A DNA stretch of 64,000 bases from an uncultured Bacteroidales bacterium (GTDB lineage Bacteria; Bacteroidota; Bacteroidia; Bacteroidales; F082). Both the position numbers and the translations under genes were made by a program. Position 1 is the first letter of the stretch. Every line of letters begins with the position of its first letter. Where the stretch lies: NCBI GenBank assembly GCA_946408345.1, contig CAMJRR010000012.1, positions 1,993 to 65,992 of the forward strand, read 5' to 3'. This document shows, one piece after another, positions 34,149-61,022 of the stretch. Under the pieces are notes generated by a model. The model was not told the DNA's origin and ran no database searches. It worked only from the letters and a program-made list of their open reading frames with translations.

Positions 34149-34221
34149 TGCGGGGTAGAGCAGCGGCCAGCTCACTGGGCTCATATCCCAGAGGTCGGCG
34201 GTTCGAATCCGTCCCCCGCTA
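34149..34221 (+). tRNA. tRNA-Met(CAT), initiator type
   Basis: The cloverleaf fits standard numbering. T1:T72 is mismatched, A11:T24 pairs, and three G:C pairs (29-31/39-41) close the anticodon stem. The loop is CTCATAT and the T loop TTCGAAT. No CCA is encoded. Confidence 0.85.
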
Positions 34222-34296
34222 CAAGGAGAGCGTTTAGATGTCCCGGCAAACTCCTAACCAAACAGGCAACATCAAGTGAGTGAGAATCTCACAAAC

Positions 34297-43215: not shown

Positions 43216-43257
43216 AAAATAAGGTTTGGCGCATAGTTTTGCGTCAAACCTTATTTT
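43216..43257 (+). terminator. 13-bp perfect stem-loop abutting the tape-measure start codon
   Basis: AAAATAAGGTTTG (43216-43228) pairs with CAAACCTTATTTT (43245-43257). The ATG is at 43259. Confidence 0.6.
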
Positions 43258-43258
43258 T

Positions 43259-46200
43259 ATGGCAGACAATAGAGATACTTTTGTTTCCGAGATTTACGTC
43301 AACAACGAGCAGGCCAACGATGCCATTGCCGAGATGACAAAGCAGCTTACCAAGCTGACCGACAAATACGACGACCTTGCGGCAAAGAACGAGATACTGG
43401 CCGCGAAAACAAACAAGGCCAAGGCCGCGATGGAAGAAACGGCCAAGGCCTTGGAGGGGATGAAGGAAGGCACCGAGGAATACGCCAAGACTTCGAAGAA
43501 ACTCAAAGAACAGGAAAAGGCATACAACGACCTTGCCAAGAAACTCGAAATCAGCAAGCACAAGACCGACCAGGCGAAGCGTGAGATGGATTCGATGCAA
43601 GAGAGTATCAAGAGGGCTGACGATGGTGTCAAGAAGTTCGGCAAAGCCATGGAAAACCTTACTGGGAAAAGCATGGAGAACCTTGTGAGGATGCAGCGCC
43701 AGTTGAGATCGGAACTTGACAAGACGAAACCCAATACCAAGGAATGGGACGAATTGGCCAAGAAATACCAGCAGGTGACTGCCGAAATGAAGCGGCTTGA
43801 AGCAGTCCAAAGCGGTGTTGTGATAAAACAGCAGGGATGGCTGCAAAGGCTTAACGGCGTTTCGAGTGCCTTCCTTTTCCTCGGTCAGGCTGCGAGGACT
43901 GCTATTGCACTTGCGCGCCGCTTCGCCGATGCCTACAAGACCATCTCCAACTTCGAGCAGGCCAACGCCAACCTTTCCACCATCCTCGGCGTAAACCGCG
44001 ACCAGATGAAGGCTTTGGAGGATGCCGCCCTTGAACTGGGCAGCACCACGCGCTACACGGCCTCGGAGGTGACCAACCTGCAAACCGAGTTGGCCAAGTT
44101 GGGTTTCACACAGAAGGAAATCCTCGACATGGGCCCGTCGGTGCTGAACTTCGCCACGGCGGTGGGAACCGACTTGGCGAGTGCGGCGGCAATGGCGGGT
44201 GTGGCCTTGCGCTCGTTTGAGATGCAAAGCGACCAGACCGAAGACGTGCTGGGCACGATGGCGGTGGCCTGCAACAAATCGGCGCTTTCCTTTGAATATT
44301 TGCAAAACGCCTTCAGCACCATTGCGCCAGTGGCGAAGAGCTACGGCCTCGGCTTGAAGGACACGGTGGCCCTGTTGGGCACCTTGGCCAATGCCGGATT
44401 CGACGCCAGCAGCGCGGCCACGGCAACGAGAAACATCCTTTTGAAGATGGTGAACACCAACGGCGAATTGGCGAAGAGTCTCGGCGGATCGGTGAAGACA
44501 TTCGACGACATCATGGACGGGATGATCAAGTTGCGCGATTCGGGACTTGACCTTGCCGGAGCTTTCGAGCTTACCGACCAAAGGAGCGTTTCGGCCTTCA
44601 GCACCTTCCTTCGCGGCGCGGAGAGCGCGAAGGAGCTGCGGGCATCCATCGATGACGTGAACGGCGCGTTGGCGGCCACCGCCGAAGTGCGTGCCGACAC
44701 GGTTGAAGGTGCCATTGCAGGACTGCAAAGCGCATGGGAGGGATTCATCTTGAGTTTCCGCAACTCATCGGGCACGGTGAAGGAGATGATTAAGACCCTG
44801 ACGGAGATTGTGCGCAAGTTGCCGCAATACTCCGACGGCATTGTGAAGGTGACGCAGGCGGTTGTGATTGTGGTGGCCGCAATCAAAACGTGGACTTTGT
44901 TGGAAAAGGCAAAGAACGCAGTGGTGGCGGCGGGAAGCAAACTGGCTGCCGCAAGGGTGGTGATAGTGGAATCGGTGCGGCTGGCCTACTTCAAGCTGAC
45001 AGGCAACACCATAAAAGCCGCCGCAGCGCAAACGGCATTGAACACGGCTATGGCGGCCAACCCCTTCGGAGCGGTAGTGGCCATTGTGGGAGTGCTGTCG
45101 GTGGCTATCAGCCGCTTGGTGGGCAGGCAGCGTGAGGCCACGGAACAGACAGATGCCTTGGCTGAAGCCGAGAAACGCGCCAACGAGGAATACGGCGAAC
45201 AGGCGGGCAAGGTTCGCGCCTTGACTTCCATTGTCGAAAACAACAATATCGCTCTCGGCGAGCGCAAGAAAGCCCTTGAGGAACTGAAAAGCATCGTTCC
45301 TGGTTACCACGGCGACCTGACCGAAGAAGGCAGACTTATAAATTCCAACAAAGAAGCCATCGACGAGTACTGCAAGAGCCTCCGTGAGCAAATCCGGCTA
45401 GAAGCCCGCAAGGAAAAACTCGTTGAATTGGAGAAACAAATTGCCGAGCTTGAAGACCAAAAAGCAGATGCGCAGGAAAGGCAGCATCAGGCCTTGGTGG
45501 AATCGGGCGGCGACCATACTGAAATACAGTGGAAGAAAGCGCCTCTGCTTGGAAAAAACGCAAAGAAGGGAAAATTCACTCCTTATGGACAAGCCAAAAA
45601 AGACGAAGCTGACATTGACAAACTGCTTGCGCCTTTGTATGAGCAGGAGAAAAAGATTAGCGAAAAAATCGGCAAGATATTCACCGACCCGATTGACAAA
45701 GTCATGGCTGAATACGAGGCCATGTTTGACCAAATCCGAAAGGAAAGCGTCGACAACCCCAAGGCCGCCAACGAGGAAATCAACCGCCTGCGGGAGGAAC
45801 GAGACCTGAAAATCGCGGAACTAAAGAAAACGGCTGATGAAACCAAGAAAGTGGTTTCGGAAGAAAACGCCATCCTCACCCAAGCCCAGTTCGATTTCCT
45901 TGAAGGCCGTTACGACAAACTCACCAAGAAAGAGAAAGCGATGGTGGATGCCGGATATGCCACCCTTTCGGATGAGGACTCCAAAGCCCTCAAAGCGCGA
46001 TATGACAAGCTGATGAAGGCCGACAACAAGGCCGCCGACCAACGCTACCAAGCCGACATGAAAAGCATCGAGCAACACCAACGCGCCGAACAGAACCTTA
46101 TCAACGCCCAGTTCTTTAACCGCGATATTACAGCAGAGCAACACGAGGAGAAACTGGTGGAAATCAAGGTGAAGTATCTGGAGGAGAAGAAGGCCCTTGC

Positions 46201-47728
46201 CGAGAGATACGGCCAAGACACCAGCACCATCGAGGAACAGCTGCTGGCCGCAGAGGTGGCACGCCACAAGTTCTACTACGACAAAGAGATGAAGCTGTGC
46301 GAGAAACGCTGGATGGAGGAAGAGATTGGGCTGAGGCAGCAACTGTCGGCCAACGCCATTACACAGGAGGAGTTCGACAAGCGTATGCTCGAAAACAAGG
46401 AGAAACACCTGCGTGAGCAGCAAGAATTGGCCTTGGGCTACAACCAGGACGGCAGCGGCATACAGCTGAAGGATATCGAAGCTCGGCAGAAGGAGGAGGA
46501 ACGCGCCCTGAAGCAGAGACTTATGTCACAGAAGGTGACGCAAGAGGAATACGACCGCCAGATGCTCGAAACCAAGCTGAAATACCTGCAACAGCGTCTC
46601 CAGCTTGCCCGTCAGGGCGGACAGGACGAAACCGCCATCCTTCAGGAGATCCTGGCAGCCCAGGTGGAAGCCGAGGAACTGGCCATGAAGCAGATGGCGA
46701 AGCTGAAGGAAGACGCGAAGAAGGTCATCGCCGGACTTGACCCTTCCTCAGCACGCAAGTCGGAACTGGAAGAGCAACTGAAGCAGCTGCAAGTGCTGCA
46801 CGATGCCAAGCTGCTTTCAGAGGAACAATTTAGGAAAGCCGTAAAGAGACTAAACAAACAGTATGACTCAGATGAACTGAAGGAGAGATTGGCCAACGTA
46901 CGGAATTACGCCGAGCTGTCCAACAGCGTTATGTCAGAAGCCTCCAACTTCGTCACCGCCCTGAAAGAAGCCGAATCGGCGCAACTGGAAGCCGAATATC
47001 AGAAGCAACTCACGGCAGCGGGCGACAATGCCGAAAAGCGCGAGCAAATCGAGGCAGAATACGAGCAGAAGAAGCTCGACCTGCAAAAGAAGTATGCCGA
47101 CACGGAGATGGTGATCAACATCGCCAAGACCGTGGCCAACGGTGCGGCTGCCGCCGTGAAGGCTTATTTGGACGGTGGCGTGTTCGCAGGCCCTGTTTTG
47201 GCTGCTTTGGTCGCCGCCACCACTGCCGCCGAGGTGGCCACCATCGTCGCGCAACGCAACGCTATCAAGAATGCGAGCGTCAGCAGCGGTGGAGGCTCTT
47301 CGTCGGCTCCCACGACAGGCGAACGCAAGATGACCGGCTACGGAGATGGCGGGTTTACGGACCGTGCGGCCAACGACCACAAGGTTGTGGGCGTGGTCCA
47401 TGCCAACGAGTATGTCGCTCCAGCGTGGATGGTGAGGGAAAACCCTACCGTGTTCGCCAACTTGGAGCAATACCGCAAGAACGGAAGCCACGGTCGCAGC
47501 GGCTCAGTGAGCCAGGGCTTCGCCGATGGTGGCTTCACCCTCGGCAACGGCGGTGGCCTTGGCGGTGCCATAGGCGCACAGCCCGACATCGAAGCCGCCG
47601 TGGAGGCTGCCATCCGCCGCGTGATGGCCGACGGTGCCATCCGCGCCTATCTGGTCCGCAAAGACCTCACTGAACTCGATAACCAAACCCAACGCTTCAA
47701 AAAACAAACTTCAAGATGGAACTCGTAA
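43259..47728 (+). CDS. tail tape measure protein
   Basis: 1489 aa from ATG 43259. Long coiled-coil stretches, central hydrophobic segments and a Gly-rich C-terminus. Confidence 0.85.
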   Translation: MADNRDTFVSEIYVNNEQANDAIAEMTKQLTKLTDKYDDLAAKNEILAAKTNKAKAAMEETAKALEGMKEGTEEYAKTSKKLKEQEKAYNDLAKKLEISKHKTDQAKREMDSMQESIKRADDGVKKFGKAMENLTGKSMENLVRMQRQLRSELDKTKPNTKEWDELAKKYQQVTAEMKRLEAVQSGVVIKQQGWLQRLNGVSSAFLFLGQAARTAIALARRFADAYKTISNFEQANANLSTILGVNRDQMKALEDAALELGSTTRYTASEVTNLQTELAKLGFTQKEILDMGPSVLNFATAVGTDLASAAAMAGVALRSFEMQSDQTEDVLGTMAVACNKSALSFEYLQNAFSTIAPVAKSYGLGLKDTVALLGTLANAGFDASSAATATRNILLKMVNTNGELAKSLGGSVKTFDDIMDGMIKLRDSGLDLAGAFELTDQRSVSAFSTFLRGAESAKELRASIDDVNGALAATAEVRADTVEGAIAGLQSAWEGFILSFRNSSGTVKEMIKTLTEIVRKLPQYSDGIVKVTQAVVIVVAAIKTWTLLEKAKNAVVAAGSKLAAARVVIVESVRLAYFKLTGNTIKAAAAQTALNTAMAANPFGAVVAIVGVLSVAISRLVGRQREATEQTDALAEAEKRANEEYGEQAGKVRALTSIVENNNIALGERKKALEELKSIVPGYHGDLTEEGRLINSNKEAIDEYCKSLREQIRLEARKEKLVELEKQIAELEDQKADAQERQHQALVESGGDHTEIQWKKAPLLGKNAKKGKFTPYGQAKKDEADIDKLLAPLYEQEKKISEKIGKIFTDPIDKVMAEYEAMFDQIRKESVDNPKAANEEINRLREERDLKIAELKKTADETKKVVSEENAILTQAQFDFLEGRYDKLTKKEKAMVDAGYATLSDEDSKALKARYDKLMKADNKAADQRYQADMKSIEQHQRAEQNLINAQFFNRDITAEQHEEKLVEIKVKYLEEKKALAERYGQDTSTIEEQLLAAEVARHKFYYDKEMKLCEKRWMEEEIGLRQQLSANAITQEEFDKRMLENKEKHLREQQELALGYNQDGSGIQLKDIEARQKEEERALKQRLMSQKVTQEEYDRQMLETKLKYLQQRLQLARQGGQDETAILQEILAAQVEAEELAMKQMAKLKEDAKKVIAGLDPSSARKSELEEQLKQLQVLHDAKLLSEEQFRKAVKRLNKQYDSDELKERLANVRNYAELSNSVMSEASNFVTALKEAESAQLEAEYQKQLTAAGDNAEKREQIEAEYEQKKLDLQKKYADTEMVINIAKTVANGAAAAVKAYLDGGVFAGPVLAALVAATTAAEVATIVAQRNAIKNASVSSGGGSSSAPTTGERKMTGYGDGGFTDRAANDHKVVGVVHANEYVAPAWMVRENPTVFANLEQYRKNGSHGRSGSVSQGFADGGFTLGNGGGLGGAIGAQPDIEAAVEAAIRRVMADGAIRAYLVRKDLTELDNQTQRFKKQTSRWNS

Positions 47729-49809
47729 CTGAAAACGGAAAACTCGACCTGCCCCGCGACTTTTCTCTGAATATGGAACGCACCAACCCGCTCCTTTCGG
47801 GCGAAGGCGATGCCAGCGTCCCGGCTACGCTGCCTTCCTCATCAAGGAACCTGGCAGCTCTCGGTCACCGCGAACGCATCGACCGCGCTGACCGATATAT
47901 AAATAAGGTAGATGCCATTCTTCAGGTCGGTCCCGTACAAAAGCGAGGACAGTTGGTCATCGACACCTTGCACCGTCACGATGGCATAGATGCCTCGTTT
48001 GCCATCGACAGCAGCGACCTCTACGTGAAATCGAAGTCGAAGACGCTGAAAGAGATATTTGCTGATGCCGTTTATGAAGCCGTCAACCATGAGGATTTCG
48101 GCACTCTGGCCGCTGCCATGACTAGGATGCAAGCCATATATGGTGGCAACGATACCTACGACTACACAATCTTCCCAGTGGCCATCGCAAAATACGAGAC
48201 CGAAAGTAACGGCACGAAGACGGAACACTACCAGTACAACAACGAGGATGACGGCTCGCACAACTTGGTCTATCAGGCACGCACCGTGCATGAAGGAGAT
48301 GTCCTTATGAGTGTTCCAGCCGGTTACGGCATTGCGCCCTTCCTAAAGCTGCACCGTTTGATGGCTCGTTTGTTTGAGGCGATGGGCTACACCGTGGTCT
48401 CAAACTGCTTCGCCGAAACGCCTTTTTCCAACCTGACCATCGTGCACAACTGCTCCGACTGCATTTGCAACCCGTCAGTCACCTTATATTATAAGGATAT
48501 GGCGCCGAGTTGCACAATGAGTGAGTTCCTTGAATGGTTGTTGGCCAAGTTCCACGCCCAACCGGTGGTGAACAGCGAGACCAAACAGGTGAAAATCGTA
48601 CTGATGGAAGATATGCTTGGCGCATCAACCGACATCGATATCAGCGGCAAAGTGGAAGGAGAATTCTCCGTCCAGCTCAATCCCACGAAGCGCATAGTGC
48701 TGACACCGACCAACAGCATTGAAGGCACTGAACCTGCCGCCGAGAGCTTCGAGGAACTGGTGGCCAGGTATGGAGGATTTGTGGAAGTGGATGAGGATGG
48801 GTATGATTCTCTTGAAGGCAATAACCCGGTCTGCAACGACTGCCTTGTGCTTCGGAAGACCACAGGACAATTCTACTCCCTCAACTACGACATCTCAACG
48901 AATTTGCAGAAGCGCGAGCTGAAAGGCACCAACCATTTCATCTACGACAGGAAAAACAGTGACGAGACGGAGGATTTCAGCCAGAACGATGTGATGCCGC
49001 TGATGTTGGCTGGTGTAGAGCGCAAGAGAGAGGTTTGCCCTTTCATCGGCGAAAGGCTTCATTACCACACCTCCTACGAAGGCAAGAAAGAAGACGACAA
49101 ACAGGACATCATTGTCGTGCAAAAGGTGTACAATAACCTTTTTGCTAACCCAACCACCGGCACCACGCAGAAATACATCCCTTACGCTGTAGCGCAATCA
49201 GGCTCAAACGGCATGGACCTCGACCTAGGGTTGACCAATTTTATGGCTTACAAGTACTTTTGGCAGGCTTACAATAATCTACTGCTGAACAACCTAACGA
49301 GGCTGAAAGGGAGGGTGGACTACGACTTAGGCGAGTTTCTCGGCATCGACATGAGCCGTCCGAAATTCTGCAACGGGCAAAAGCTAATCCCAGTGTCGGC
49401 AGCGGCAGTCTTGGGCGACCATTTTGGATTGAGCGATACCGAGTTCTTGTTGGTGAAGTCCTTTGTTGACGGCATTTACGATACTGAAATTGAGCCTATA
49501 CAAGGCAATGGGTTAAAGTGGAGTGCGTCCGACAACGTGGAAGATATCGCCCGCGAGCTATATGCCAACGAAATCGCCTTGCCCAATGGTGCTACCCAAT
49601 ATGTAAGTTATGAGTTCTCATTGAATGAAAGCTTATCACCTGGAATGCCGTCATACCTTAACGAAGTCAGAACTGTATCAGTGCAAGCGAGTATTACTAT
49701 TCATTACAGAGAGAGAGAGATAGAAGGCGGTCAAGTCCATTGGACAAACGAATTCGAAATCTTCAACAACCAAACCGTCACCGTCACCTTCACGGCCGTG
49801 CCAGCATAA
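47716..49809 (+). CDS. tail protein (distal tail / baseplate, by position)
   Basis: 697-aa ORF overlapping the tape-measure gene end. Confidence 0.6.
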   Translation: MELVTENGKLDLPRDFSLNMERTNPLLSGEGDASVPATLPSSSRNLAALGHRERIDRADRYINKVDAILQVGPVQKRGQLVIDTLHRHDGIDASFAIDSSDLYVKSKSKTLKEIFADAVYEAVNHEDFGTLAAAMTRMQAIYGGNDTYDYTIFPVAIAKYETESNGTKTEHYQYNNEDDGSHNLVYQARTVHEGDVLMSVPAGYGIAPFLKLHRLMARLFEAMGYTVVSNCFAETPFSNLTIVHNCSDCICNPSVTLYYKDMAPSCTMSEFLEWLLAKFHAQPVVNSETKQVKIVLMEDMLGASTDIDISGKVEGEFSVQLNPTKRIVLTPTNSIEGTEPAAESFEELVARYGGFVEVDEDGYDSLEGNNPVCNDCLVLRKTTGQFYSLNYDISTNLQKRELKGTNHFIYDRKNSDETEDFSQNDVMPLMLAGVERKREVCPFIGERLHYHTSYEGKKEDDKQDIIVVQKVYNNLFANPTTGTTQKYIPYAVAQSGSNGMDLDLGLTNFMAYKYFWQAYNNLLLNNLTRLKGRVDYDLGEFLGIDMSRPKFCNGQKLIPVSAAAVLGDHFGLSDTEFLLVKSFVDGIYDTEIEPIQGNGLKWSASDNVEDIARELYANEIALPNGATQYVSYEFSLNESLSPGMPSYLNEVRTVSVQASITIHYREREIEGGQVHWTNEFEIFNNQTVTVTFTAVPA

Positions 49810-49853
49810 AATGTCACTCGTTTCAAAAACAACCAAAATATCTTTACTACATC

Positions 49854-51281
49854 ATGAGTGCAATAATATCACCGACATACAGACCGACCAACAATACCTG
49901 GTACGCCAAAAACACCGTGCCGAAGCTCTTGATTGAGGCCACGGAGAATGTCACCGTGACACTCTATTTCAAGGACCAGGAGGCACAAGAGTGGCAACCC
50001 TATATCGCCTTCAGGGGCAGCTATTCGCCCGACTTCAACGGCGAAATCTGGGTTGACTTCAATGGTGTGTACGACAGCTTCATCTCCACCAAGATGCCCA
50101 CTGCCAGCCAGACAAGCCTGGTGCAAGATAAGATATGGTACTATTTCCGCGTCGTCGTGGTCGACAGCAGCGGCGACAATGTGGGAACGGCCATCACCTG
50201 GCAGGTGTTCAACGCCAAACTGAACTCGGCCACACCGTTCCAGACATGGAGCCAACAGAATTTCCTGACCAACCAGCCGATGGAAAAGACCACCAACTAC
50301 GAGGCGCCGGAATGGCTGACCTACCTCGACCTTGACGACAAAGGCGACAGGATAGTGATTGGACGATTCTATCCAAAAGAGGGTGGGGCGGTGGACTGCA
50401 TCGTGAATGACGACGCGTGTTCAGGATGCTTCAGCGTCAACGTGAATTACGCACGCCTGATACCGATGGTCGACAGGCTGCCTCACCAGCTGAAAGGCTA
50501 TTATGACATCGTCCTTACCGACGGCAACCTCAACGAGATTTGCCGCCAACGCTACATATACAAGGAACGCAGCGGACGAGAGAAATACTTCCTCTTCGTG
50601 AATGCCTTGGGCGGCATCGACACGCTGATCTGCAAGGGTGAGAACGTGCTCGCGCCCGACATCACCCACAACATCGGTCGATTTGGCCGCCAATACCGCG
50701 CCTTGGACGATACCAACGACATGCGTAAGTGGACACAGCACATCGGTCAGGTGCCCAACCACCAACGCAATTGGATCTACGAATTGCTGACCGCCAAGCA
50801 AGGTGCCGAGAAATACGACCCCGAGACCATGGAATACCTCGAAATCGTGGTCGACAGCTCAGAACTCTCCATGAGCGACTTCGGCCAGTTGGCAGGCTCG
50901 CCGTTCAGCTATATCCTGAACGATACCGAGAATGTGGTGGCCGACACCGAGCGACCCGACCGCAGCCTGCACCAATCAGTGGCAGACCAGGCCGAGGAAC
51001 TCAACGACAGGACGACGAAGGTGACGGTGACGTTCGTCCACGGGGCAACCGAACCCGTAATCATTCATTCCGATGCGCTATACGTCTTGTTTGATAGCGA
51101 AAAAGGGGCGAATGCGTCGGTGTATTATTTTACCGACGGCATTAAGGCAGGAGAATTCAAGCCAGGCGTGGACGAAAGCCCGGTGCGGATCACAATCAAG
51201 GAGGGCGCAAGCGTACACTTCGAGACCGAGGGCTTGGTGCGGTCGCTGGAACTCAGATATTACCCGACAAACAACATATAG
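49854..51281 (+). CDS. tail protein (by position)
   Basis: 475 aa from ATG 49854. Confidence 0.6.
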   Translation: MSAIISPTYRPTNNTWYAKNTVPKLLIEATENVTVTLYFKDQEAQEWQPYIAFRGSYSPDFNGEIWVDFNGVYDSFISTKMPTASQTSLVQDKIWYYFRVVVVDSSGDNVGTAITWQVFNAKLNSATPFQTWSQQNFLTNQPMEKTTNYEAPEWLTYLDLDDKGDRIVIGRFYPKEGGAVDCIVNDDACSGCFSVNVNYARLIPMVDRLPHQLKGYYDIVLTDGNLNEICRQRYIYKERSGREKYFLFVNALGGIDTLICKGENVLAPDITHNIGRFGRQYRALDDTNDMRKWTQHIGQVPNHQRNWIYELLTAKQGAEKYDPETMEYLEIVVDSSELSMSDFGQLAGSPFSYILNDTENVVADTERPDRSLHQSVADQAEELNDRTTKVTVTFVHGATEPVIIHSDALYVLFDSEKGANASVYYFTDGIKAGEFKPGVDESPVRITIKEGASVHFETEGLVRSLELRYYPTNNI

Positions 51282-51283
51282 CC

Positions 51284-51601
51284 ATGGCAAAGATCCTGAA
51301 AGTGGTAGACTGGTACGTGCACCTTGCGATGATAGTGTCAATCGGGATAGGCATCGCGGCCTTCTTCACCCCCCCGATGGCGGTGATTGACCGCAGTGTG
51401 CTGTCGTTTATCGCCGAGATAACGGGAGCAGCCGCACTGTTGACTTTCCTGGTCAAGCTGCCCGAGTACATCGAGAAAGGAGGGACGGCAAGAGTGACGA
51501 AAGGAAGCACCACGATCGAGGTCGGCGGCAAGGGCCACCCCAGCCGAGGCGAGTCCATCCGGGAAAACGACAACACGGAAGAAAACATTGAAGAGATATG
51601 A
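51284..51601 (+). CDS. hypothetical membrane-associated protein
   Basis: 105 aa with two hydrophobic segments. Confidence 0.55.
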   Translation: MAKILKVVDWYVHLAMIVSIGIGIAAFFTPPMAVIDRSVLSFIAEITGAAALLTFLVKLPEYIEKGGTARVTKGSTTIEVGGKGHPSRGESIRENDNTEENIEEI

Positions 51602-51948
51602 TCAGGAAACAAATCATTGCGGGGGACACGTTCCCCATCATCTATATGCACAAACCAAACGGCGTGCTCGAAGACCTTCCGGCAGGCTACGACTACATCA
51701 TAGGACTGCGCCCTGAAGGCAGCGAAAGGCCGATGGTGTTCAGCTACCAGGACGGCGACATCGCCAACCCGGAGACTGGCGTCTACAGGTGGGAATGCCC
51801 GCACGAGCTGTCGAAGACGCTCAAAGGCAACATCATCGTTGAGATGGTAATCTACAGCCGCGATGCAAGCTTTGTGAAACACAGTAACGAATCCGTAGTG
51901 CTGGAGGTGACACCCAGCTTCATGAACGAAGAATTGGACTATGAGTGA
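51598..51948 (+). CDS. hypothetical tail-module protein
   Basis: 116-aa ORF. Confidence 0.55.
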   Translation: MIRKQIIAGDTFPIIYMHKPNGVLEDLPAGYDYIIGLRPEGSERPMVFSYQDGDIANPETGVYRWECPHELSKTLKGNIIVEMVIYSRDASFVKHSNESVVLEVTPSFMNEELDYE

Positions 51949-52196: not shown

Positions 52197-55100
52197 ATGG
52201 CAAAGAAAGTAAAGATTACAGGTAAGAACCTGCTGAACAGCATCGAAGACGACTGGGGAGGCAAGAACGAGACCTCAGAGGCAATTGACGTTTATGGTAC
52301 CCAAGTGCCTGCCGGGCAGGAATGGGGCATGAACCGTGGCGAGGTGGAACGCTTCGTGAAGGAAAAGCTGCAAGAGCACGATGAAGGCATCGAAACGCTT
52401 GGCGAAGAAGCAATCGGCGATGTCGAGGAAGGACCGTTCAACCCGGTGACAAACAGGAAACCCATATATTTCTACAAGGTCGACGACCCCGGCCACGAGC
52501 ATCCCATCACAATCGAGGTGTCCGGGCAGGTCGGAGGCGAGGAGAAGATACCGAGGGTCAGCGTCTTGCTCAACACCCCAGGCACAATCAAGAAAGGCGA
52601 CACAATAGACTTCGACTGGGTCTACGACTTCATCCACAAGATTGACGGCGAGGAGCAGACGGGAGGCTTAAGGCCGACACCGTCAAGTGTCGCCATCGAA
52701 GTGAAGGCGGGTAACACCTTGATATATAGCGACACGATAAACGGCGGAGTGGTGGAGGACCAGCATTACAACGTCAGGTTCGCCAACCCCAACGCGACGG
52801 GACAGGTCACCATCACAGTGGTGGCCACGGTCATCATCGACGGTCAGATTGTCGAGGCCATAGGCGGCGAAGTGGTGACCATCGTGGAGATGCGCCTTTC
52901 CACCGACTTCAACCCCGCCCGCTCGCTCTCCGCCGGCGGAATCGCCCCGCGAGACGTAAGCGTCGCATGCGCGTACCGCGTGCCAAGCGGATCGGTGCTA
53001 TACGTTTGGCTCGACGGCGTGTTGTTCGACAATCCTTCCATCGGGACAAACAGCACTTATTTCTTCGGCGACAGAAACATCAACGACGGAAACGGGCTGG
53101 CCGCAGGCAGGCACAACCTGCAATTCGTGGCACGGAACGGGACGCTGCTGAGCAACCTTCTCATAGTCGATTTCCTGGTCAGCGGTTCGGATAGCGACTA
53201 TCTCGGCATCAGGTACTCCTGCGATGTCGACGCGTTAGAAAGCCTTCCGCTCAATCATCTGTACGGAGAAACAGCATATCCCGCAACCGTCGAAAGGTTC
53301 AGCGATTTGCAACTGTTATACGCGGCATGGAATGTCGCGTCGCCTGAAAGCAATGTTAAGGTTTACGTCTGTGAGCAAACAGGAGACGAAGAGCCCGTAT
53401 CGACACTGGCGCAAGACCTGAATGTCGACAGGACGGCGCAGACCTTGAGGCAGCGATTTGACGACACGACGCAAAAAGGACTCGTGTTGGCGATGGGGAC
53501 TGCAAGCATCGGGTTCGATGTCAGCGTTACGGCAGCCTCTGAGCTCGACATATCCATCGCCGCCAACCCCTACGAGGAACTACTCGCCGACGGGAAGTCG
53601 AACAGCCAGTCGGACAGGGAAGACTGGGGCGGCATCACCACGTTCGAGGGCGTGAACTGGAACACCAACGGTTGGGTGACGGATTCTGAAGGCATCACAT
53701 CGCTTCTCCTCACCAACGGGGCAAGGGCGGTGATTGGCATGAAGCCGTTTGCCGCCGGCGAAAACAGCCCGCAACAGGCAGGTATGGCTTTCCAGATGAA
53801 GTTCAAGGTAAGCCATGTGACGCAACGCGGCGCGACCGTCATCAGTTGCCTTTCCGAAAACCAAGGCAACGAGGGATGGCCTACGGGGTTCAGGGTTACG
53901 GCAGCCGAGGCGGGCCTGCTGTTTGGAGGCAAGGAGGAGATATCGACAACCGAGAAAAAGACCTACAACGGCATACATAACGGGGTGGAGATGGAAACCT
54001 ACATTGACGGCAACGGGGTGGAGGTACACATAGGTGACTTCCTCGACGACAACGACAATTGGGTCCCCGAAAGCCAGGCGGCCGTACTCAAGATCGAGAA
54101 GCCCTATGGCGTGACGATGGACATAGCCACGGACAAGTGGGTCGACCTGATGCTCGTGGTCTACACGCCCGCGCAAGTCGATGCCATGTTCGAAGGACAA
54201 GACATCATTACCAGCCAGGGAGAGTACGGCATCGCAATGCTGTACCTTAACGGGGTTTTGAGCCGCGTGAACAGATACTCAAAAAACAAGGTCATCACCC
54301 AGGAGTCTCCTGTCGCAATCACCATCGACAGCGACCATGCAAACGTGAACGTGAGGCTGATACGCTGGTACACACGCTTCCTGAAGGCGGACGAGACCCT
54401 CAACAACTGGATCCTTGGCCTTGACACGCAAGGCGACATGGTGACGGCCTACAACCGCAACGCCGTGGGCGACGGCCAGACAGCCGACGCAGACCAAAAC
54501 ATTGCAATAAGCATCGAATCTCTTGGGGCGAAGCGCAAGGGAAGGCTCACTTTCGTGAAGAGCAGCGCAGACTACGGAGGCGGAGCCACCGGCATAGAGG
54601 AACTCTTTGCAGACGGCGTCGGCAAAAGCACCAACTTCCACGCCGACTTGGTGAGGTGGGAGCCGCCACAAGACGAAAACGGTACGCCTGTGGGCGAAGG
54701 ATTCGAGGCGCGCAACGTGAGGATAAGGATACAAGGCACGTCGAGCGTGAACTATCCTTACAAGAACATCCGCGTCTATCTCACCACACCTTTCAGCAAG
54801 AATGCAGGCTGCTCGCTGAAGATAGGCAGCACCTTATACACTTACGATCCAGGAAGCGGCAAGCTCAAGGACAGCCAGGGGAAGACTTGCCAAGGCTACT
54901 GCATCAGGGGAGCGGAAAAATCACGCCCGCAAACGGTGCTTTGCGCGAAGACCGATTTCGTGGACTCGTCACTGGCACTGAACACGGGCGGTGCCCACCT
55001 TTTCAACGACGTGATGGTCGCGCTCGGACTGCGCACGCCGCCGATGGAGCACGACGACCGTGTGAGGCAAGCCATTGACGGCATACCTTGCGATGTCTTT

Positions 55101-58100
55101 GCGGCTACGAGCGAGAGCGAGGCGCCGTCGTATTTCGGCCAGTTCGTGCTGAACAACGAGAAGTCGAAGTCGGGCAAGATATTCGGGATGGAGGGCAACG
55201 ATGAATCCGTTTTCGTGCCGACGTGCCCCATAGCCTTGGAATCGCTCGAGAACAAGTACGCCTTCACGCTGTTTCAGGCGGCAGGCAGCGCAGACAGCCC
55301 AGAACTGGAGGCGCAGATGATGGATTCATTCGACGACGCGTTTGAGTTCAACTACCCCGAGGACGTGTTCTATAACGAGCAAAAGGCCATCGCGAGCCTC
55401 GGCAACGACTACGACCCTGACAAGAACCTTGCGACAGCGCAGCAGCGCACGGCCATCAAGAGGCTTATGGGATTCATCCACGACAGCGTGGCGGCAAGCG
55501 AGGTGGACATGAACGAACCCCAATATGGCGGGCACGGCGAATGGGCTTCTGCCGACAAACAAAAATGGGCAAGCCAATACTTCAAAGACCATGCAGCGGA
55601 ATACTTCGATGTGAACTACCTGCTGATATATTACATCATCACCGACTATTGGGCCAGCGTAGACCAACGCGCAAAGAACATCCTTTGGCGCACATGGGAC
55701 GGGATGAAATGGTATCCGACCTATTACGACGGCGACACGGCAATGGGCGTGCGCAACGACGCCTTCCTTGTGTACAAGTACGACGTGACGCGCGACTTCT
55801 GGGACACTGAGCGGGGCAAATACGCTTTCGAGGGGCACGATTCGTGGCTGTGGTGCCTCGTGCTGGCCAACTACGAGGAAGAGATGACACTGCTTGCCGA
55901 CAGCCTGCGGAGAGGAGGATATATGAGCAACACGGAGATGCTGAGGGAGTTCAACGAGGTGATGATGGGCAACTGGAGCGAGCGACAGTACAACAAGAGC
56001 GGAAAACTGAAGTATGTCGACACGATGTTCAAAAGCACAAAATACTTCCCGTTCACGCTGCAAGGCAACAAGGAGTTGCACAGGACACAGTTCATAACGG
56101 AAAGGGCAGCCCTGCTTGACGCTCGATACAATACAGAAAACTACCGTGGCGACATCATGACGTTGAGAATCAACCGTGCCGCAAACGATGCGCCCGACAG
56201 TCTCACGATTGTCAGCGGCGACCTCTACTATTACGGATGGAGGGAAAACAACACGACGAAGCTGCGACCCGTGCGCGTGAACAACGGGGAGACCTACCAG
56301 ATGATGTTCGCGCAGGCAATCAACGCGGGCTCGTCTTATGTCGCGGTGATGGGTGCCAGCAAGATAAAGGAACTCTACCTTACAGGCCTCGGCAACCATC
56401 TTGTCACCGAATTGCAACTCGGAAACTGCACGATGCTCACGAAACTCGTTGCAAGGGCCGACAACGGCATCGCGTTGAACGTGAACATGACGCTTGGCGG
56501 CATGGACACGCTGGAACACATCGACCTGACTGGGCAGACGAGCCTCTACACTGGCAGCAGCGGTTTGCTGAACGTGTCGGGGCAAGGCAGGCTGCGAACG
56601 CTTCTCGCCGGAAACACCAACTTCACCATCGTCAACCTTCCCGAAGGCGCACCTTTGTCGGAACTTGTGCTGCCTCCGACGCTAACAACCCTGACGCTGC
56701 GCTACCTTCCACAACTCACCCATAGCGGCCTGACGATACAAGGCTACGGCAGCATCACGGGCTTCAACTTCGCCGAATGCCCCGACATCGACTGGAAGGA
56801 CATACTCGACCGCTGCCAGAACCTTCAGAGGGTGCGCGTTGAAGGTGTCTCAGGGAAAGTGGACCCCGCTTGGTTGACAGAACTGAAAAACCGGAATGTG
56901 AAAGGCTATGACAGGAACGGAAACCCAGTGGAATACCCTTGCCTGGTCGGTTCGGTGATGCTTTCAAAGGTCATCGCAGACGAAGATCTTGCCGCGCTAA
57001 GGTCGCATTTCCAACAAGGCGGGCTTGTCATCGCCGAGTGCCAATACTCTGTCTATGAGATTGACGACACGTTGGCCTACGACGGTGTGTTGACATCCGC
57101 CTGCGTCAAGAACCTGGAAAACGGCAGTATGGCAACCGACGCGACCGGCGAGGGCTATGTGCCCACCGGACACGCGGTGCTCGTGCGAAACAGGATGAAG
57201 CCGGTGTGGGGCGGGACGAACCAAAACGGAGAGTGGGTAGGCGAGGAAATCAGCGGCTCCGACTACAAGAGACTTGCCGACGGCAACGAATACGACCACG
57301 CTGACATTCTCAACGCCGGCAAAGACGCGATGATGCTATTGCCGCACTGTTGGTATAAGGGCGTGAACGACTTCATCCACCAGAAAAAGTACATCATTTG
57401 GAGCAGCATAGAGAACGGGGATGGCATCCCGCCACAATCGAGCGCACGCCACTGCGTAATAAAAAAACTGTCTGAAACCGAGGACGAGGCACAAATGCTT
57501 GTGCGCCTTTCGGCGGGCGTCAATGTGGGCTACATCGAACCGGGAGTGAGCGGCATCGCTACGGACGGTGTCATCGACTCATCCGACGCTGCCGCGACGT
57601 ACAATGTCTATAAGATCGACATCGAGGGGATGAGACAAGTCAGGTGGCCGGGAATCAACGACGCCACCTACGGCGCGTGCTTCCTGGACGCAGACGGAGT
57701 GGTGATCTCGAAACACAACATGGCCGTCAACGGAGGCGATTTCGATTTCCAGGCAGACGAATGCGATTACCTGTACCTGCCCGTTCCCACAGGGGCAAAA
57801 CACTTTGTCTTCACGACGAGAGCGGCAAACACAAGCGACCCGCGCAGCCTGGTCGTGGCCGTCGACAGCGACGAAGTCGAAGCGATCGAGCCGGACTGGG
57901 TCGAGCACAAGGAGTGCCTGGTCGGTTTGTACCACGCCAGCGTCGACGGGAACAACCGAATCCGTTCCTTGACAGGCAAGACCGTCACGAAAGGAACGAC
58001 AACCCAAGAAGGCAGCACTTCGCCCAATTGGACCTACGACGAAAACGGCGACCCGACCAACGCGTCCGTCCCATCCAACCTCAAGTATTCGATGAAAGAC

Positions 58101-58775
58101 CTGCAGAACCTTTCGCGCAGGCGCGGCAAAGGCTACCAGCTGCAGGACTACGAGATGACGAAGTTCGTCGCCATCCTGTTCTATTGCCTTACCGGAACGC
58201 TCGACTCGCAGTCCGTGTGCGGTGCAGGCCGAAGCTATTCCTTGACCGGGACGCGCGACGAAATCGGGAACCGCAGCACTACCAATCTTGAATTTTCGAG
58301 CAGTGCAGGCAAGACAAACAAATGCCTTGGCCTCGAAAGCTGGTTCGGCTGCATAGCCGATTTCGTCGACAATGTGGGGGTGAACGTCACCGGCTACGTC
58401 GACTTCTACAAGAGCCAGATGGCAAACGCGGGTGAAGTCAACGGGAGGTGGTGGATCTATGACCCCGACGAAGAAGAGGAACGATATGTAAAGGGGGTCG
58501 CTGTAAACATTAGCAACAGCTATGTCAAGAGAGTCAGGCACGGACGGCATTGCGACATTGTACCGTCCATCGTGGGTGGCACCTCAACCTCAAGGTATGC
58601 CGACACGTACTCATACAATCCTGTTCCAAATCGAGTGCTCGTGAGGTCTGATGCCAACGGAGGAGCCACCGGCGGTATCGCCTACGCAACCGCGACATTC
58701 TCGTCATCGATTGCGATCGGTTATTGCGGGACGCGGCTGGCATTTAGGGGGCGAATAAAGCTGTCAAACGAATAA
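52197..58775 (+). CDS. giant tail fiber / receptor-binding protein with CotH-like and leucine-rich-repeat regions
   Basis: 2192 aa. VRIRIQGTSSVNYPYKNIRVYL and AKNILWRTWDGMKWYPTYYDGDTAMG resemble CotH-family blocks (~54700-55900). LxxLxL-type repeats lie at ~56370-56830. Confidence 0.7.
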   Translation: MAKKVKITGKNLLNSIEDDWGGKNETSEAIDVYGTQVPAGQEWGMNRGEVERFVKEKLQEHDEGIETLGEEAIGDVEEGPFNPVTNRKPIYFYKVDDPGHEHPITIEVSGQVGGEEKIPRVSVLLNTPGTIKKGDTIDFDWVYDFIHKIDGEEQTGGLRPTPSSVAIEVKAGNTLIYSDTINGGVVEDQHYNVRFANPNATGQVTITVVATVIIDGQIVEAIGGEVVTIVEMRLSTDFNPARSLSAGGIAPRDVSVACAYRVPSGSVLYVWLDGVLFDNPSIGTNSTYFFGDRNINDGNGLAAGRHNLQFVARNGTLLSNLLIVDFLVSGSDSDYLGIRYSCDVDALESLPLNHLYGETAYPATVERFSDLQLLYAAWNVASPESNVKVYVCEQTGDEEPVSTLAQDLNVDRTAQTLRQRFDDTTQKGLVLAMGTASIGFDVSVTAASELDISIAANPYEELLADGKSNSQSDREDWGGITTFEGVNWNTNGWVTDSEGITSLLLTNGARAVIGMKPFAAGENSPQQAGMAFQMKFKVSHVTQRGATVISCLSENQGNEGWPTGFRVTAAEAGLLFGGKEEISTTEKKTYNGIHNGVEMETYIDGNGVEVHIGDFLDDNDNWVPESQAAVLKIEKPYGVTMDIATDKWVDLMLVVYTPAQVDAMFEGQDIITSQGEYGIAMLYLNGVLSRVNRYSKNKVITQESPVAITIDSDHANVNVRLIRWYTRFLKADETLNNWILGLDTQGDMVTAYNRNAVGDGQTADADQNIAISIESLGAKRKGRLTFVKSSADYGGGATGIEELFADGVGKSTNFHADLVRWEPPQDENGTPVGEGFEARNVRIRIQGTSSVNYPYKNIRVYLTTPFSKNAGCSLKIGSTLYTYDPGSGKLKDSQGKTCQGYCIRGAEKSRPQTVLCAKTDFVDSSLALNTGGAHLFNDVMVALGLRTPPMEHDDRVRQAIDGIPCDVFAATSESEAPSYFGQFVLNNEKSKSGKIFGMEGNDESVFVPTCPIALESLENKYAFTLFQAAGSADSPELEAQMMDSFDDAFEFNYPEDVFYNEQKAIASLGNDYDPDKNLATAQQRTAIKRLMGFIHDSVAASEVDMNEPQYGGHGEWASADKQKWASQYFKDHAAEYFDVNYLLIYYIITDYWASVDQRAKNILWRTWDGMKWYPTYYDGDTAMGVRNDAFLVYKYDVTRDFWDTERGKYAFEGHDSWLWCLVLANYEEEMTLLADSLRRGGYMSNTEMLREFNEVMMGNWSERQYNKSGKLKYVDTMFKSTKYFPFTLQGNKELHRTQFITERAALLDARYNTENYRGDIMTLRINRAANDAPDSLTIVSGDLYYYGWRENNTTKLRPVRVNNGETYQMMFAQAINAGSSYVAVMGASKIKELYLTGLGNHLVTELQLGNCTMLTKLVARADNGIALNVNMTLGGMDTLEHIDLTGQTSLYTGSSGLLNVSGQGRLRTLLAGNTNFTIVNLPEGAPLSELVLPPTLTTLTLRYLPQLTHSGLTIQGYGSITGFNFAECPDIDWKDILDRCQNLQRVRVEGVSGKVDPAWLTELKNRNVKGYDRNGNPVEYPCLVGSVMLSKVIADEDLAALRSHFQQGGLVIAECQYSVYEIDDTLAYDGVLTSACVKNLENGSMATDATGEGYVPTGHAVLVRNRMKPVWGGTNQNGEWVGEEISGSDYKRLADGNEYDHADILNAGKDAMMLLPHCWYKGVNDFIHQKKYIIWSSIENGDGIPPQSSARHCVIKKLSETEDEAQMLVRLSAGVNVGYIEPGVSGIATDGVIDSSDAAATYNVYKIDIEGMRQVRWPGINDATYGACFLDADGVVISKHNMAVNGGDFDFQADECDYLYLPVPTGAKHFVFTTRAANTSDPRSLVVAVDSDEVEAIEPDWVEHKECLVGLYHASVDGNNRIRSLTGKTVTKGTTTQEGSTSPNWTYDENGDPTNASVPSNLKYSMKDLQNLSRRRGKGYQLQDYEMTKFVAILFYCLTGTLDSQSVCGAGRSYSLTGTRDEIGNRSTTNLEFSSSAGKTNKCLGLESWFGCIADFVDNVGVNVTGYVDFYKSQMANAGEVNGRWWIYDPDEEEERYVKGVAVNISNSYVKRVRHGRHCDIVPSIVGGTSTSRYADTYSYNPVPNRVLVRSDANGGATGGIAYATATFSSSIAIGYCGTRLAFRGRIKLSNE

Positions 58776-58802
58776 GGACGTAAAAGCTAAATAACGAGTA
58801 AA

Positions 58803-59318
58803 ATGATTATAGACGATTTCCGCAAGTATTACGATTCGGAAGCCGAAAGCGGCAAGATTATCCGAATAGCGAAAAGCCACTACATCCTGTTTTACGGCAA
58901 AGGAGTGGACGAAGGTAACGAAGGCGCCGTGTTCGTGTGGCGCAAGGACTACGACCACCTCCCATCGCGATCGGAGGCAAGGGCCGATGTCGAAGCCCTC
59001 GTCAACGGAATGACAGACAAGCGCATTTTGGAAGGCTTCGTCTGGAATGGGATGCCTGTCTGGCTGTCCACGGAAAACCAGTTCAACTTCAAGGCAGCCT
59101 ACGACCTGGCTTTCCAGTCAGGAGGCGCCAACCTTCCAGCAAGGTACAAACTTGGAGAGGACCGGAACGGCAATCCAATCTACTACGATTTCGAGGACGT
59201 GGCGACATTACAAGACTTCTATCTCGGCTGCATAGGGTGGATTCGGCAGTGCATAGCCGAAGGCTGGGACGAAAAAGACAGAGTGGACTATGACAGCATG
59301 TTTGGAAGGTTGGAATGA
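58803..59318 (+). CDS. hypothetical protein (tail-fiber accessory by position)
   Basis: 171-aa ORF. Confidence 0.55.
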   Translation: MIIDDFRKYYDSEAESGKIIRIAKSHYILFYGKGVDEGNEGAVFVWRKDYDHLPSRSEARADVEALVNGMTDKRILEGFVWNGMPVWLSTENQFNFKAAYDLAFQSGGANLPARYKLGEDRNGNPIYYDFEDVATLQDFYLGCIGWIRQCIAEGWDEKDRVDYDSMFGRLE

Positions 59319-59536: not shown

Positions 59537-60709
59537 TCAACCTTCACGGCTGAATGCCGGTGCCTTCGTGCTGATGGTATCAACCAATCGAGGATCCGCG
59601 TGGTTGGCATAGCGCGTGGTTATGCTCAGGTCGTGGTGGTCGGCGTGCTGCATGACGCTCAGCGCGTCAATGCCGCCTTTAAGCATCTCGTTGATACCAG
59701 TGTCGCGCAATGAATACAGCTGCATCTCGTCAGGCAACCCCAACGCCTCACGCATGTCCTGCCAATCCTTGCGGAATCGGCTGTAGGCCATCTGTTTCTT
59801 CCCTGGCATGTAGCCGTCGGAAAAGAGGTAGTCGCTCTTGTTGGCGTGTCGCGTCATCTTCTCCAGCCTCGTGACGAGTTCCGGAGTGAGTGACGGACTT
59901 CGCCGATAGTGTGTCTTGCTGTCATCCTCGCTTACCTCTATATATCGGTCGGCCAGCATCAGGTCTGACACATGCAGCCGCCAACACTCCTTCGGGCGTA
60001 TCAACGCCGAGAATACCAGTTCGCAAAGGACAATGTAATTCTCGTTGCGCTCCGACCAATACTTGTAGATTTCCTTCCTGACCTCGTGAGGCACCATGAT
60101 ACGCTTCTTGCCTTCCTCGCGCTTAGTCTTGATGGAGGCAAAGGGGTTTTCTTTGCAATAGAATTTCTCTATGGCGTAGGTGAAGAATGCCCGTGCTTGC
60201 TTCAGACGGTTGTTGTAGCTTCGACCATGCAAGCCTTTTTCCTGCACGATGAAGTCCATGAAGTTGGTGGCCATCACGCGGTTGAAGCCCGAAATGGCAA
60301 TCTTGCCATAGTTCTTTTCCACCCATTCCTTAAACACCTTGACGAAAGAGCGGTAATTGATCAAGGTGTCGGGGCGCACGTCGCCCGCTTTGTCGACCAG
60401 GTATTTGTCGAGCACGGCATTGATGGGTGTCAGCTCACGCGAATTGCCGGCACATCCCTCGAAGGGATTCCAGCCCGTGGCCAACTGTGTGTTTAGCCTG
60501 GTGATGACATCGGCGCAATAGGCCTTGAAGTCGGAGACTCTCGAATACTTCTTACGGATGCGGTTCATCTTGATCACCCGTCTTTCCATCGCATTGAAAG
60601 CCGGATTGAACACGCGGTATTCGATGGTCCAGCCATGCGCCGTGTATTTCAGCGATGCCGGAAGGTAGCTGATGAGAGGTTGAGAGTTTTGGGTTTTGAC
60701 GAGACACAT
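59537..60709 (-). CDS. int: tyrosine-type site-specific integrase
   Basis: 390 aa. ALIRPKE (Arg), YSLRDTG and HADHHDLSITTRY (His...Tyr). It is adjacent to attR and the tRNA. Confidence 0.85.
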   Translation of the reverse strand: MCLVKTQNSQPLISYLPASLKYTAHGWTIEYRVFNPAFNAMERRVIKMNRIRKKYSRVSDFKAYCADVITRLNTQLATGWNPFEGCAGNSRELTPINAVLDKYLVDKAGDVRPDTLINYRSFVKVFKEWVEKNYGKIAISGFNRVMATNFMDFIVQEKGLHGRSYNNRLKQARAFFTYAIEKFYCKENPFASIKTKREEGKKRIMVPHEVRKEIYKYWSERNENYIVLCELVFSALIRPKECWRLHVSDLMLADRYIEVSEDDSKTHYRRSPSLTPELVTRLEKMTRHANKSDYLFSDGYMPGKKQMAYSRFRKDWQDMREALGLPDEMQLYSLRDTGINEMLKGGIDALSVMQHADHHDLSITTRYANHADPRLVDTISTKAPAFSREG

Positions 60710-60834: not shown

Positions 60835-60863
60835 GTGGGACGTACTGGACTCGAACCAGTGAC
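60835..60863. repeat. attR core (within the tRNA-Val 3' end)
   Basis: Identical to 2185-2213. Confidence 0.9.
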
Positions 60864-60910
60864 CTCTGCCGTGTGAAGGCAGCGCTCTAAACCAACTGGG
60901 CTAACGTCCC
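60836..60910 (-). tRNA. tRNA-Val (anticodon CAC)
   Basis: 75-nt cloverleaf on the reverse strand. Acceptor GGGACGT/ACGTCCC, anticodon arm CTGCC-TTCACAC-GGCAG and T loop TTCGAGT. Confidence 0.9.
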
Positions 60911-60947
60911 TCCGTTGATACAAAAGACGCTTTGCAGCGTCTTTAAG

Positions 60948-61022
60948 TGGGGCGAACAAGGATCGAACTTGTGACCTCATGCCTGTCAAGCATGCGCTCT
61001 AAACCAACTGAGCTACCGTCCC
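60948..61022 (-). tRNA. tRNA-Val (anticodon GAC)
   Basis: 75 nt. Anticodon arm CATGC-TTGACAG-GCATG and T loop TTCGATC. There is one A4:C69 acceptor mismatch. Confidence 0.8.

Follow-up and report, generated by a model that had tools for sequence, protein, structure and literature searches.

The giant gene and its prophage setting

A 64,000-nt stretch of DNA from an uncultured Bacteroidales bacterium (hereafter the window), which is part of contig 12 of a 3.07-Mb metagenome-assembled genome (MAG; 86% complete, 7% contamination), contains towards its right end a gene of 2192 codons that is the subject of this work. The ORF listing and the translation show a single uninterrupted open reading frame (ORF) with an ATG start (Table 1). 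Reading rightwards, the order of features is the tape measure gene, four unannotated ORFs, the giant gene, a 171-aa ORF, a minus-strand integrase gene, a pair of tRNA-Val genes and a host DPP-IV gene. Because of this order, the giant gene is placed at the right end of an integrated prophage as its last structural gene. The host of the prophage is a gut or rumen Bacteroidales bacterium. We consider that the gene very probably codes for the distal tail fibre by which a temperate tailed phage binds its receptor; the protein belongs to a family that combines CotH, lectin, leucine-rich repeat (LRR) and C-type-lectin domains. In PHROGs, the 2192-aa protein matched phrog_14959 (E 0), a family without annotation, and its last 280 aa (aa 1903-2183) matched phrog_5302, which is annotated as 'tail protein'.

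From the N to the C terminus, the predicted order of domains is an N-terminal region, a Concanavalin-A-like lectin domain, a CotH-type atypical kinase domain, a small beta-sandwich, an LRR solenoid, beta-sandwiches resembling carbohydrate-binding modules (CBMs) and a C-type-lectin tip of the Mtd/TaqVP type. A preliminary description, made by eye, had called the product a tail protein with a CotH-like centre, a following LRR block and a distinct C-terminal module. The seven peptides that it quoted all lie where it had placed them (RIQGTSS at aa 841-862, KTDFVDSS at aa 919-940, DQRAKN...YDGD at aa 1156-1184, the LRR-like peptides at aa 1395-1507 and the C-terminal end at aa 2172-2192), and their conservation goes beyond chance, the motifs being invariant in 30 family members and 97-100% conserved in 124 diverse representatives.

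Membership of the Hankyphage-type giant tail fibres

By homology, the 2192-aa protein is a member of the Hankyphage-type family of giant tail fibres (Wu f1 / PC_00012 / group 3). A tblastn search against phage genomes led to Bacteroides Hankyphage and related phages, with ~30% identity across 97% of the length, and a Megablast search against phage genomes returned nothing. The Hankyphage match is the gene bearing the annotated variable repeat (VR) of a diversity-generating retroelement (DGR). This DGR target of Hankyphage p00 (BK010646, 31489-38226) corresponds to category f1 of Wu et al. 2018, PC_00012 of Roux et al. 2020 and domain group 3 of Macadangdang et al. 2024. The two proteins share the domain order, the CotH motifs and the C-terminal C-type-lectin (CLec) tip, and aa 2145-2188 of the window protein align with the Hankyphage VR. 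The preliminary description had overlooked both this link to a DGR target and the absence of a DGR from the present copy.

At least 642 close homologues were found in the protein database, mostly of 2100-2250 aa, and an exhaustive HMMER search with aa 820-1390 (E<=1e-3) returned at least 1445 clusters at 50% identity; among the matches listed, nearly all are giant proteins. The combination of domains, which had been thought unusual, instead defines this family and was already present in surveys of DGRs. Targets of ~2000 aa with weak CotH and Laminin_G_3 matches were described by Wu et al. 2018 (PMC5758913), viral CotH-like DGR targets (PC_00012) by Roux et al. 2020 (bioRxiv 10.1101/2020.04.01.020958), phage CotH kinase domains fused to hypervariable C-type lectins, termed 'currently unstudied', by Benler et al. 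2021 (PMC8008677), and proteins of >2000 aa that pair CotH (5JDA) motifs with carbohydrate-binding motifs and LRRs by Macadangdang et al. 2024 (bioRxiv 10.1101/2024.11.15.621889). Roux et al. 2020 also proposed that the cleft of the kinase is turned towards the CLec tip. The architecture of CotH, LRR and lectin domains is therefore already published, and the DGR-less locus is a further family member. The same structural core of CotH plus LRR is seen in phage proteins of BFVD, a viral structure library, including those of the crAss-like phages cr124_1 and cr52_1 and gp353 of Bacillus phage G (E 6e-33 to 1e-9), although these CotH/LRR proteins are mostly ~700-1300 aa long and have other flanking modules.

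The designation as a tail protein fits the position of the gene after the tape measure, as the last structural gene. It also fits the Hankyphage study, in which the homologue was named a tail fibre, its DGR was active and the protein was detected by mass spectrometry in particle preparations (PMC12135933). By analogy, the protein would be located in the virion of the window phage. A different function was suggested for PC_00012 by Roux et al. 2020, namely manipulation of host signalling, and Bacillus CotH is a Ser/Thr kinase (PMC7821199). On this account the giant protein would be not a structural fibre but a phage effector kinase acting inside the host cell. We regard this as improbable: the gene lies in the tail module, where it directly follows the tape measure and tail-tip genes and is the last late gene, particle preparations contain the Hankyphage homologue, the C-terminal end adopts a receptor-binding fold of the Mtd/TaqVP type, and the protein carries lectin, CBM and LRR binding modules.

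Table 1. Features of the giant gene and its surroundings, in window coordinates
Feature	Coordinates	Strand	Evidence
Tape measure protein	43226..47728	+	PHROG and Pfam PhageMin_Tail matches
Predicted giant tail-fibre gene (2192 aa, P0001)	52197..58775	+	ORF listing; full-length homology to the Hankyphage DGR target
N-terminal region (aa 1-460)	52197..53576	+	Family-wide conservation in alignment
Concanavalin-A-like lectin / Laminin_G_3-type domain (aa ~461-800)	53577..54596	+	Pfam matches of relatives; segment profile
CotH kinase-like domain (aa 843-1257)	54723..55967	+	hhalign; Foldseek 5JD9/5JDA
Predicted catalytic loop DQRAKN (D1156, K1160, N1161) and metal-binding YDGD (D1178, D1180)	55662..55736	+	CotH alignment
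Small beta-sandwich linker domain (aa ~1320-1384)	56154..56348	+	AlphaFold2 model residues 501-566 all-beta, pLDDT >88
LRR solenoid (aa ~1385-1600)	56349..56996	+	Segment profile; AlphaFold2; BFVD
Beta-sandwich, CBM-like region (aa ~1620-1900)	57054..57896	+	AlphaFold2 pLDDT mostly >85
C-type-lectin-fold tip, TaqVP/Mtd-like (aa ~1900-2192)	57897..58772	+	Foldseek; phrog_5302
Former VR equivalent (aa ~2145-2188), without template	58629..58760	+	Alignment onto the Hankyphage VR and the L043 VR
27-nt junction, where relatives hold a template repeat and reverse transcriptase (~1.7-2.0 kb in most)	58776..58802		
Conserved 171-aa ORF (phrog_19239)	58803..59318	+	PHROG match 2e-41
Tyrosine integrase, right prophage end	59537..60709	-	Pfam Phage_integrase 3.2e-16
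Two tRNA-Val genes, beside integrase	60835-61022		ARAGORN

The CotH kinase-like domain

Profile homology and predicted fold support membership of the CotH family for the central part of the protein. As a reference set we took 31 genuine CotH domains encoded in genomes of the host's order, and hhalign aligned these to a profile of the phage domain built from 124 sequences, with 97.5% probability (E 4.9e-12) over 274 columns, matching CotH positions 1-292 of 330 with aa 843-1257; the comparison was convincing only with this profile, a shallow family profile (A1) reaching 36% probability and an E value of 3.7e-4. When 26 diverse, distant members of the superfamily were scanned singly, Pfam CotH was detected at E<=0.01 in 19 (best 6.6e-13). 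An AlphaFold2 model of aa 820-1620 (predicted local distance difference test (pLDDT) 80.7, predicted TM-score (pTM) 0.74) was searched with Foldseek, and the B. cereus CotH kinase structures 5JD9/5JDA were the only PDB matches at E<=1e-3 (E 1.4e-4, prob 1.00). In BFVD, the best matches were phage proteins annotated as 'Spore coat protein', 'CotH kinase protein' and 'Leucine-rich repeat protein'.

Several results weigh against these assignments. With 12.9 bits (E 0.076), the direct Pfam CotH match (PF08757) does not reach the cut-off of 23.8 and covers aa 1126-1194 only, a PF08757 scan of the host genome returned two host CotH genes and not the giant gene, and the 2192-aa protein itself matched no Pfam LRR family at E<=1. 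In Foldseek, the TM-score against CotH is moderate (0.54-0.55 on the target), and the domain contains large insertions. Some searches also fell short: an NCBIfam scan of the 2192-aa protein gave no match, a phmmer search of it against PDB sequences returned nothing, and searches of PDB sequences with a family profile (A2) and with one host CotH protein did not reach 5JD9/5JDA. A plain Pfam scan thus came close to giving neither a CotH nor an LRR match, the outcome that the preliminary description had named as counting against its two domain calls; both were rescued by the deeper profile and fold comparisons.

The three CotH-like motifs of the preliminary description fall on conserved CotH motifs, and the alignment points to a complete set of CotH catalytic residues in the giant protein. 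D1156, D1178 and D1180 align with CotH Asp columns that are conserved in 100%, 100% and 87% of the 31 CotH domains, and all three are 100% conserved in the 124 representatives of the phage family. In the N-lobe, G847, S850 and K856 are common to CotH and 97-99% conserved among the phage proteins. In B. subtilis CotH, the corresponding Asp residues are the catalytic D228 and the metal-binding D251 (PMC7821199). The phage domain is therefore like the Bacillus spore-coat kinase (PF08757; 5JD9/5JDA) in its protein-kinase-like fold, catalytic Asp, metal-binding DxD and N-lobe G/S/K. It is unlike that kinase in sequence (~15% identity, below the Pfam gathering score), in size (~480 aa with large insertions versus ~330 aa) and in context, since Bacillus CotH is a free coat protein of ~360 aa whereas the phage domain is embedded in a predicted virion protein of 2192 aa.

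Selection on the gene was estimated from the ratio of nonsynonymous to synonymous substitution rates (dN/dS) against the closest relative (L044; dS 0.63). The value for the whole gene is 0.147. Among its regions, the lectin-like domain (0.064) and CotH (0.067) have the lowest values, followed by the LRR (0.14) and the CLec body (0.20), and the VR equivalent has the highest (0.32). The gene is therefore maintained by purifying selection, with the lectin-like and kinase-like domains the most constrained. These data bear on the possibility that the CotH-like domain has no catalytic activity and serves as a scaffold or binds ligands, as has been proposed for the CotH invasins of Mucorales, the protein being purely an adhesin. 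Such a role would agree with the strong divergence of the domain from canonical, Pfam-detectable CotH and with its large insertions, which are modelled at low confidence (model residues 360-394 and 440-471). It would also agree with the scarcity of extracellular ATP, which makes catalysis at the host surface less likely. We nevertheless consider this rather unlikely. Pseudokinases usually lose the residues in question, whereas here the three CotH-universal Asp and the N-lobe G/S/K are 97-100% conserved across the 124 representatives of a superfamily that is otherwise 17-40% identical, and the dN/dS of the domain is almost the minimum for the gene.

Canonical CotH proteins are also encoded by the host. 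Pfam identified two in its genome (L011, C16:21825-22865, 685 aa, 168 bits; L012, C8:37604-38527, 616 aa, 132 bits), and of 61 genomes sampled from the order, 34 contain CotH genes, in numerous cases in many copies.

Lectin, leucine-rich repeat and carbohydrate-binding modules

The N-terminal region (aa 1-460) had no Pfam match and no match among PDB sequences; from its position, it is probably the part that attaches to the tail tip. The lectin domain that follows was recognized through relatives with Pfam Laminin_G_3 at the homologous position (P0085, 3.6e-10; P0010, 4.4e-6), and the profile of this segment matched the CBM40 lectin domain of NanA (4c1w, E 2.5e-4). The beta-sandwich linker gave weak CBM35-like Foldseek matches, and the region at aa ~1620-1900 gave weak matches to CBM51/CBM35 modules.

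The LRR block, which had been proposed to follow the CotH-like region, was borne out by several kinds of comparison. A segment-only alignment of aa 1385-1625 has a periodic leucine-rich pattern, and the profile built from this segment matched BRI1 (2.3e-4) and CD180 (3e-4) in the PDB, LRR proteins accounting for 15 of the 16 matches. The full-family profile (A1) reached only E 0.44, to BRI1, because its diversity was too low. Over the LRR block the AlphaFold2 model consists of short regular strands with pLDDT >90, and the modelled CotH-LRR region matched an LRR-annotated phage protein in BFVD at E 1.5e-20; Foldseek matches to LRRs in the PDB were weak (E 0.02-0.5). Among 26 relatives, Pfam identified LRR_5 in seven, LRR_8 in four and LRR_4 in four, and one relative (P0010) had a weak LRR_EndoS match at the position homologous to the LRR block.

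The distinct C-terminal module adopts the C-type-lectin fold of TaqVP and Mtd. A model of aa 1601-2192 (pLDDT 84.4, pTM 0.88) matched Thermus TaqVP (5VF4) at E 3.7e-8 and BPP-1 Mtd (1YU0) with prob 1.00 and E 2.5e-3 in Foldseek, the probabilities for 1YU0-1YU4 being 0.99-1.00. The fold search alone was effective here, as the profile of the C-terminal segment returned nothing meaningful among PDB sequences. Like these two DGR variable proteins, the giant protein would present a C-terminal C-type-lectin fold at the tip of a phage tail protein. It is unlike them in having no similarity to them at the sequence level and in not being diversified in the window copy, and its tip ends a multi-domain fibre of 2192 aa, whereas Mtd is a protein of 381 aa. 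Relative to L044, dS is ~3x higher in window 57000-58775 (1.1-1.4) than in the CotH region at 54700-56150 (0.33), which suggests recombination or mosaicism at the receptor-binding end.

Loss of the diversity-generating retroelement

In relatives of the window locus, the giant gene with its VR is followed by the template repeat (TR), the reverse transcriptase (RT) gene and then an ORF of ~170 aa. The RT begins 370-560 nt past the stop codon, and the small ORF lies ~1.7-2.0 kb past the stop in nearly all. The VR/TR pairs of these relatives are 110-117 nt long with A-specific mismatches, 461 of 527 mismatches in RT-bearing loci being at TR adenines. An RT is present in 43 of the 53 assessable relatives, some of those without one possibly being assembly artefacts (e.g. 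L101). In the window, the 171-aa ORF begins 28 nt past the stop of the giant gene, neither the window nor the 86%-complete genome contains a second copy of the 3' end of the gene (TR), and the search for a DGR reverse transcriptase was negative both within 5 kb downstream and in the genome. A trans-acting DGR elsewhere in the genome was considered and rejected, as neither a TR copy nor an RT was found, but since the host genome is a MAG with the completeness given and 7% contamination, the absence of such a DGR is not proven.

The closest relative (L044, 93% identity) has the same DGR-less layout as the window, and a DGR has been kept in relatives at 71% and 82% identity. In the family tree, the DGR-less state requires at least eight changes, and the window and L044 form a pair with 100% support that is nested within the DGR-bearing sequences L045 and L043. 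The absence of the DGR from the window lineage is therefore a recent secondary loss, one of many. The tip sequence of this copy is now fixed, because the DGR that would diversify it is missing.

Loss of the TR/RT cassette, together with the relaxed VR equivalent, might also mark the gene as a decaying remnant of a defective prophage that no longer has a function. This seems to us very improbable indeed, as a 6.6-kb ORF has remained without interruption, dN/dS is low over the gene as a whole and lowest in the lectin-like and CotH domains, the DGR-less layout is likewise intact in the independent sample from which L044 derives, and ORFs have stayed intact through the recurrent absences of the DGR in the family tree.

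Two further cases illustrate other configurations. One (L053, IMGVR_UViG_3300037400_004252) keeps a 111-nt VR/TR pair with eight of eight mismatches at TR adenines, has no RT, and has its ~170-aa ORF beginning just 444 nt past the stop; it looks like an intermediate stage of DGR loss. In the second case, the giant proteins of L101 and L111 do not differ when the last 70 residues, with the VR tip, are left out of the comparison, and RT and TR lie downstream in L111 only, a difference that reflects either a very recent loss or the assemblies.

A fibre module shared by different phages

The 171-aa ORF is 69% identical to the ORF that follows the RT in L043 and 39% identical to the homologous ORF downstream of the Hankyphage fibre gene. 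An ORF of ~170 aa was found directly downstream or ~1.3-2.0 kb downstream in 49 of 53 assessable loci, with or without a DGR, and it may be a fibre chaperone or assembly factor. In other respects the two phages differ. The window locus lacks the template repeat, reverse transcriptase and Avd of Hankyphage, and Hankyphage is a Mu-like transposable phage whereas the window prophage has a tyrosine integrase and sits at tRNA-Val. The upstream tail genes have no similarity to the Hankyphage minor tail protein, and a test for synteny of these genes with Hankyphage found none. Because the backbones differ in their mode of integration and in their tail genes, the giant gene and the small ORF can be viewed as a module shared by different phages.

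Between the tape measure and the giant gene lie four ORFs (697, 513, 105 and 116 aa; window 47716-49809, 49740-51281 and 51284-51948) for which neither Pfam nor PHROGs gave a match; their position is that of distal-tail or baseplate genes, and they are unrelated to the tail-tip proteins of Hankyphage. A tRNA-Met (CAT) gene lies inside the prophage at window 34149-34222.

Proposed role and implications

To the observed homology, fold, residue conservation, DGR loss and purifying selection we add a proposed mode of action. The N-terminal region would attach the fibre to the tail, and we infer that the lectin-fold tip is the receptor-binding part, which together with the LRR and lectin modules may bind ligands on the host surface. 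The CotH domain may be an active phosphotransferase carried on the virion. It could act in the cytoplasm during assembly, like spore-coat CotH, phosphorylating tail parts or itself in the producer cell; alternatively, it could act on the host envelope at adsorption, phosphorylating an envelope component on contact. We put forward only tentatively, as a possibility, that this activity is needed for infection or tail assembly.

Giant fibres of this kind are among the commonest tail proteins of human-gut and rumen Bacteroidales prophages, and Hankyphage has been reported in 34% of whole-community metagenomes and 21% of human-associated viromes. To what was known of the family we add that the catalytic residues are universally retained and that CotH, along with the lectin-like domain, is under the strongest constraint in the gene, that the giant gene and the small ORF move as a module between unrelated backbones, and that the DGR has been lost repeatedly without decay of the gene. 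While the particular locus is not surprising, these additions make an active enzyme a concrete hypothesis. If the domain is active on the virion and needed for infection or tail assembly, this very large family would be the first receptor-binding proteins with built-in kinase chemistry, and copies of fixed sequence without a DGR, such as that at 52197-58775, would be easier to study.

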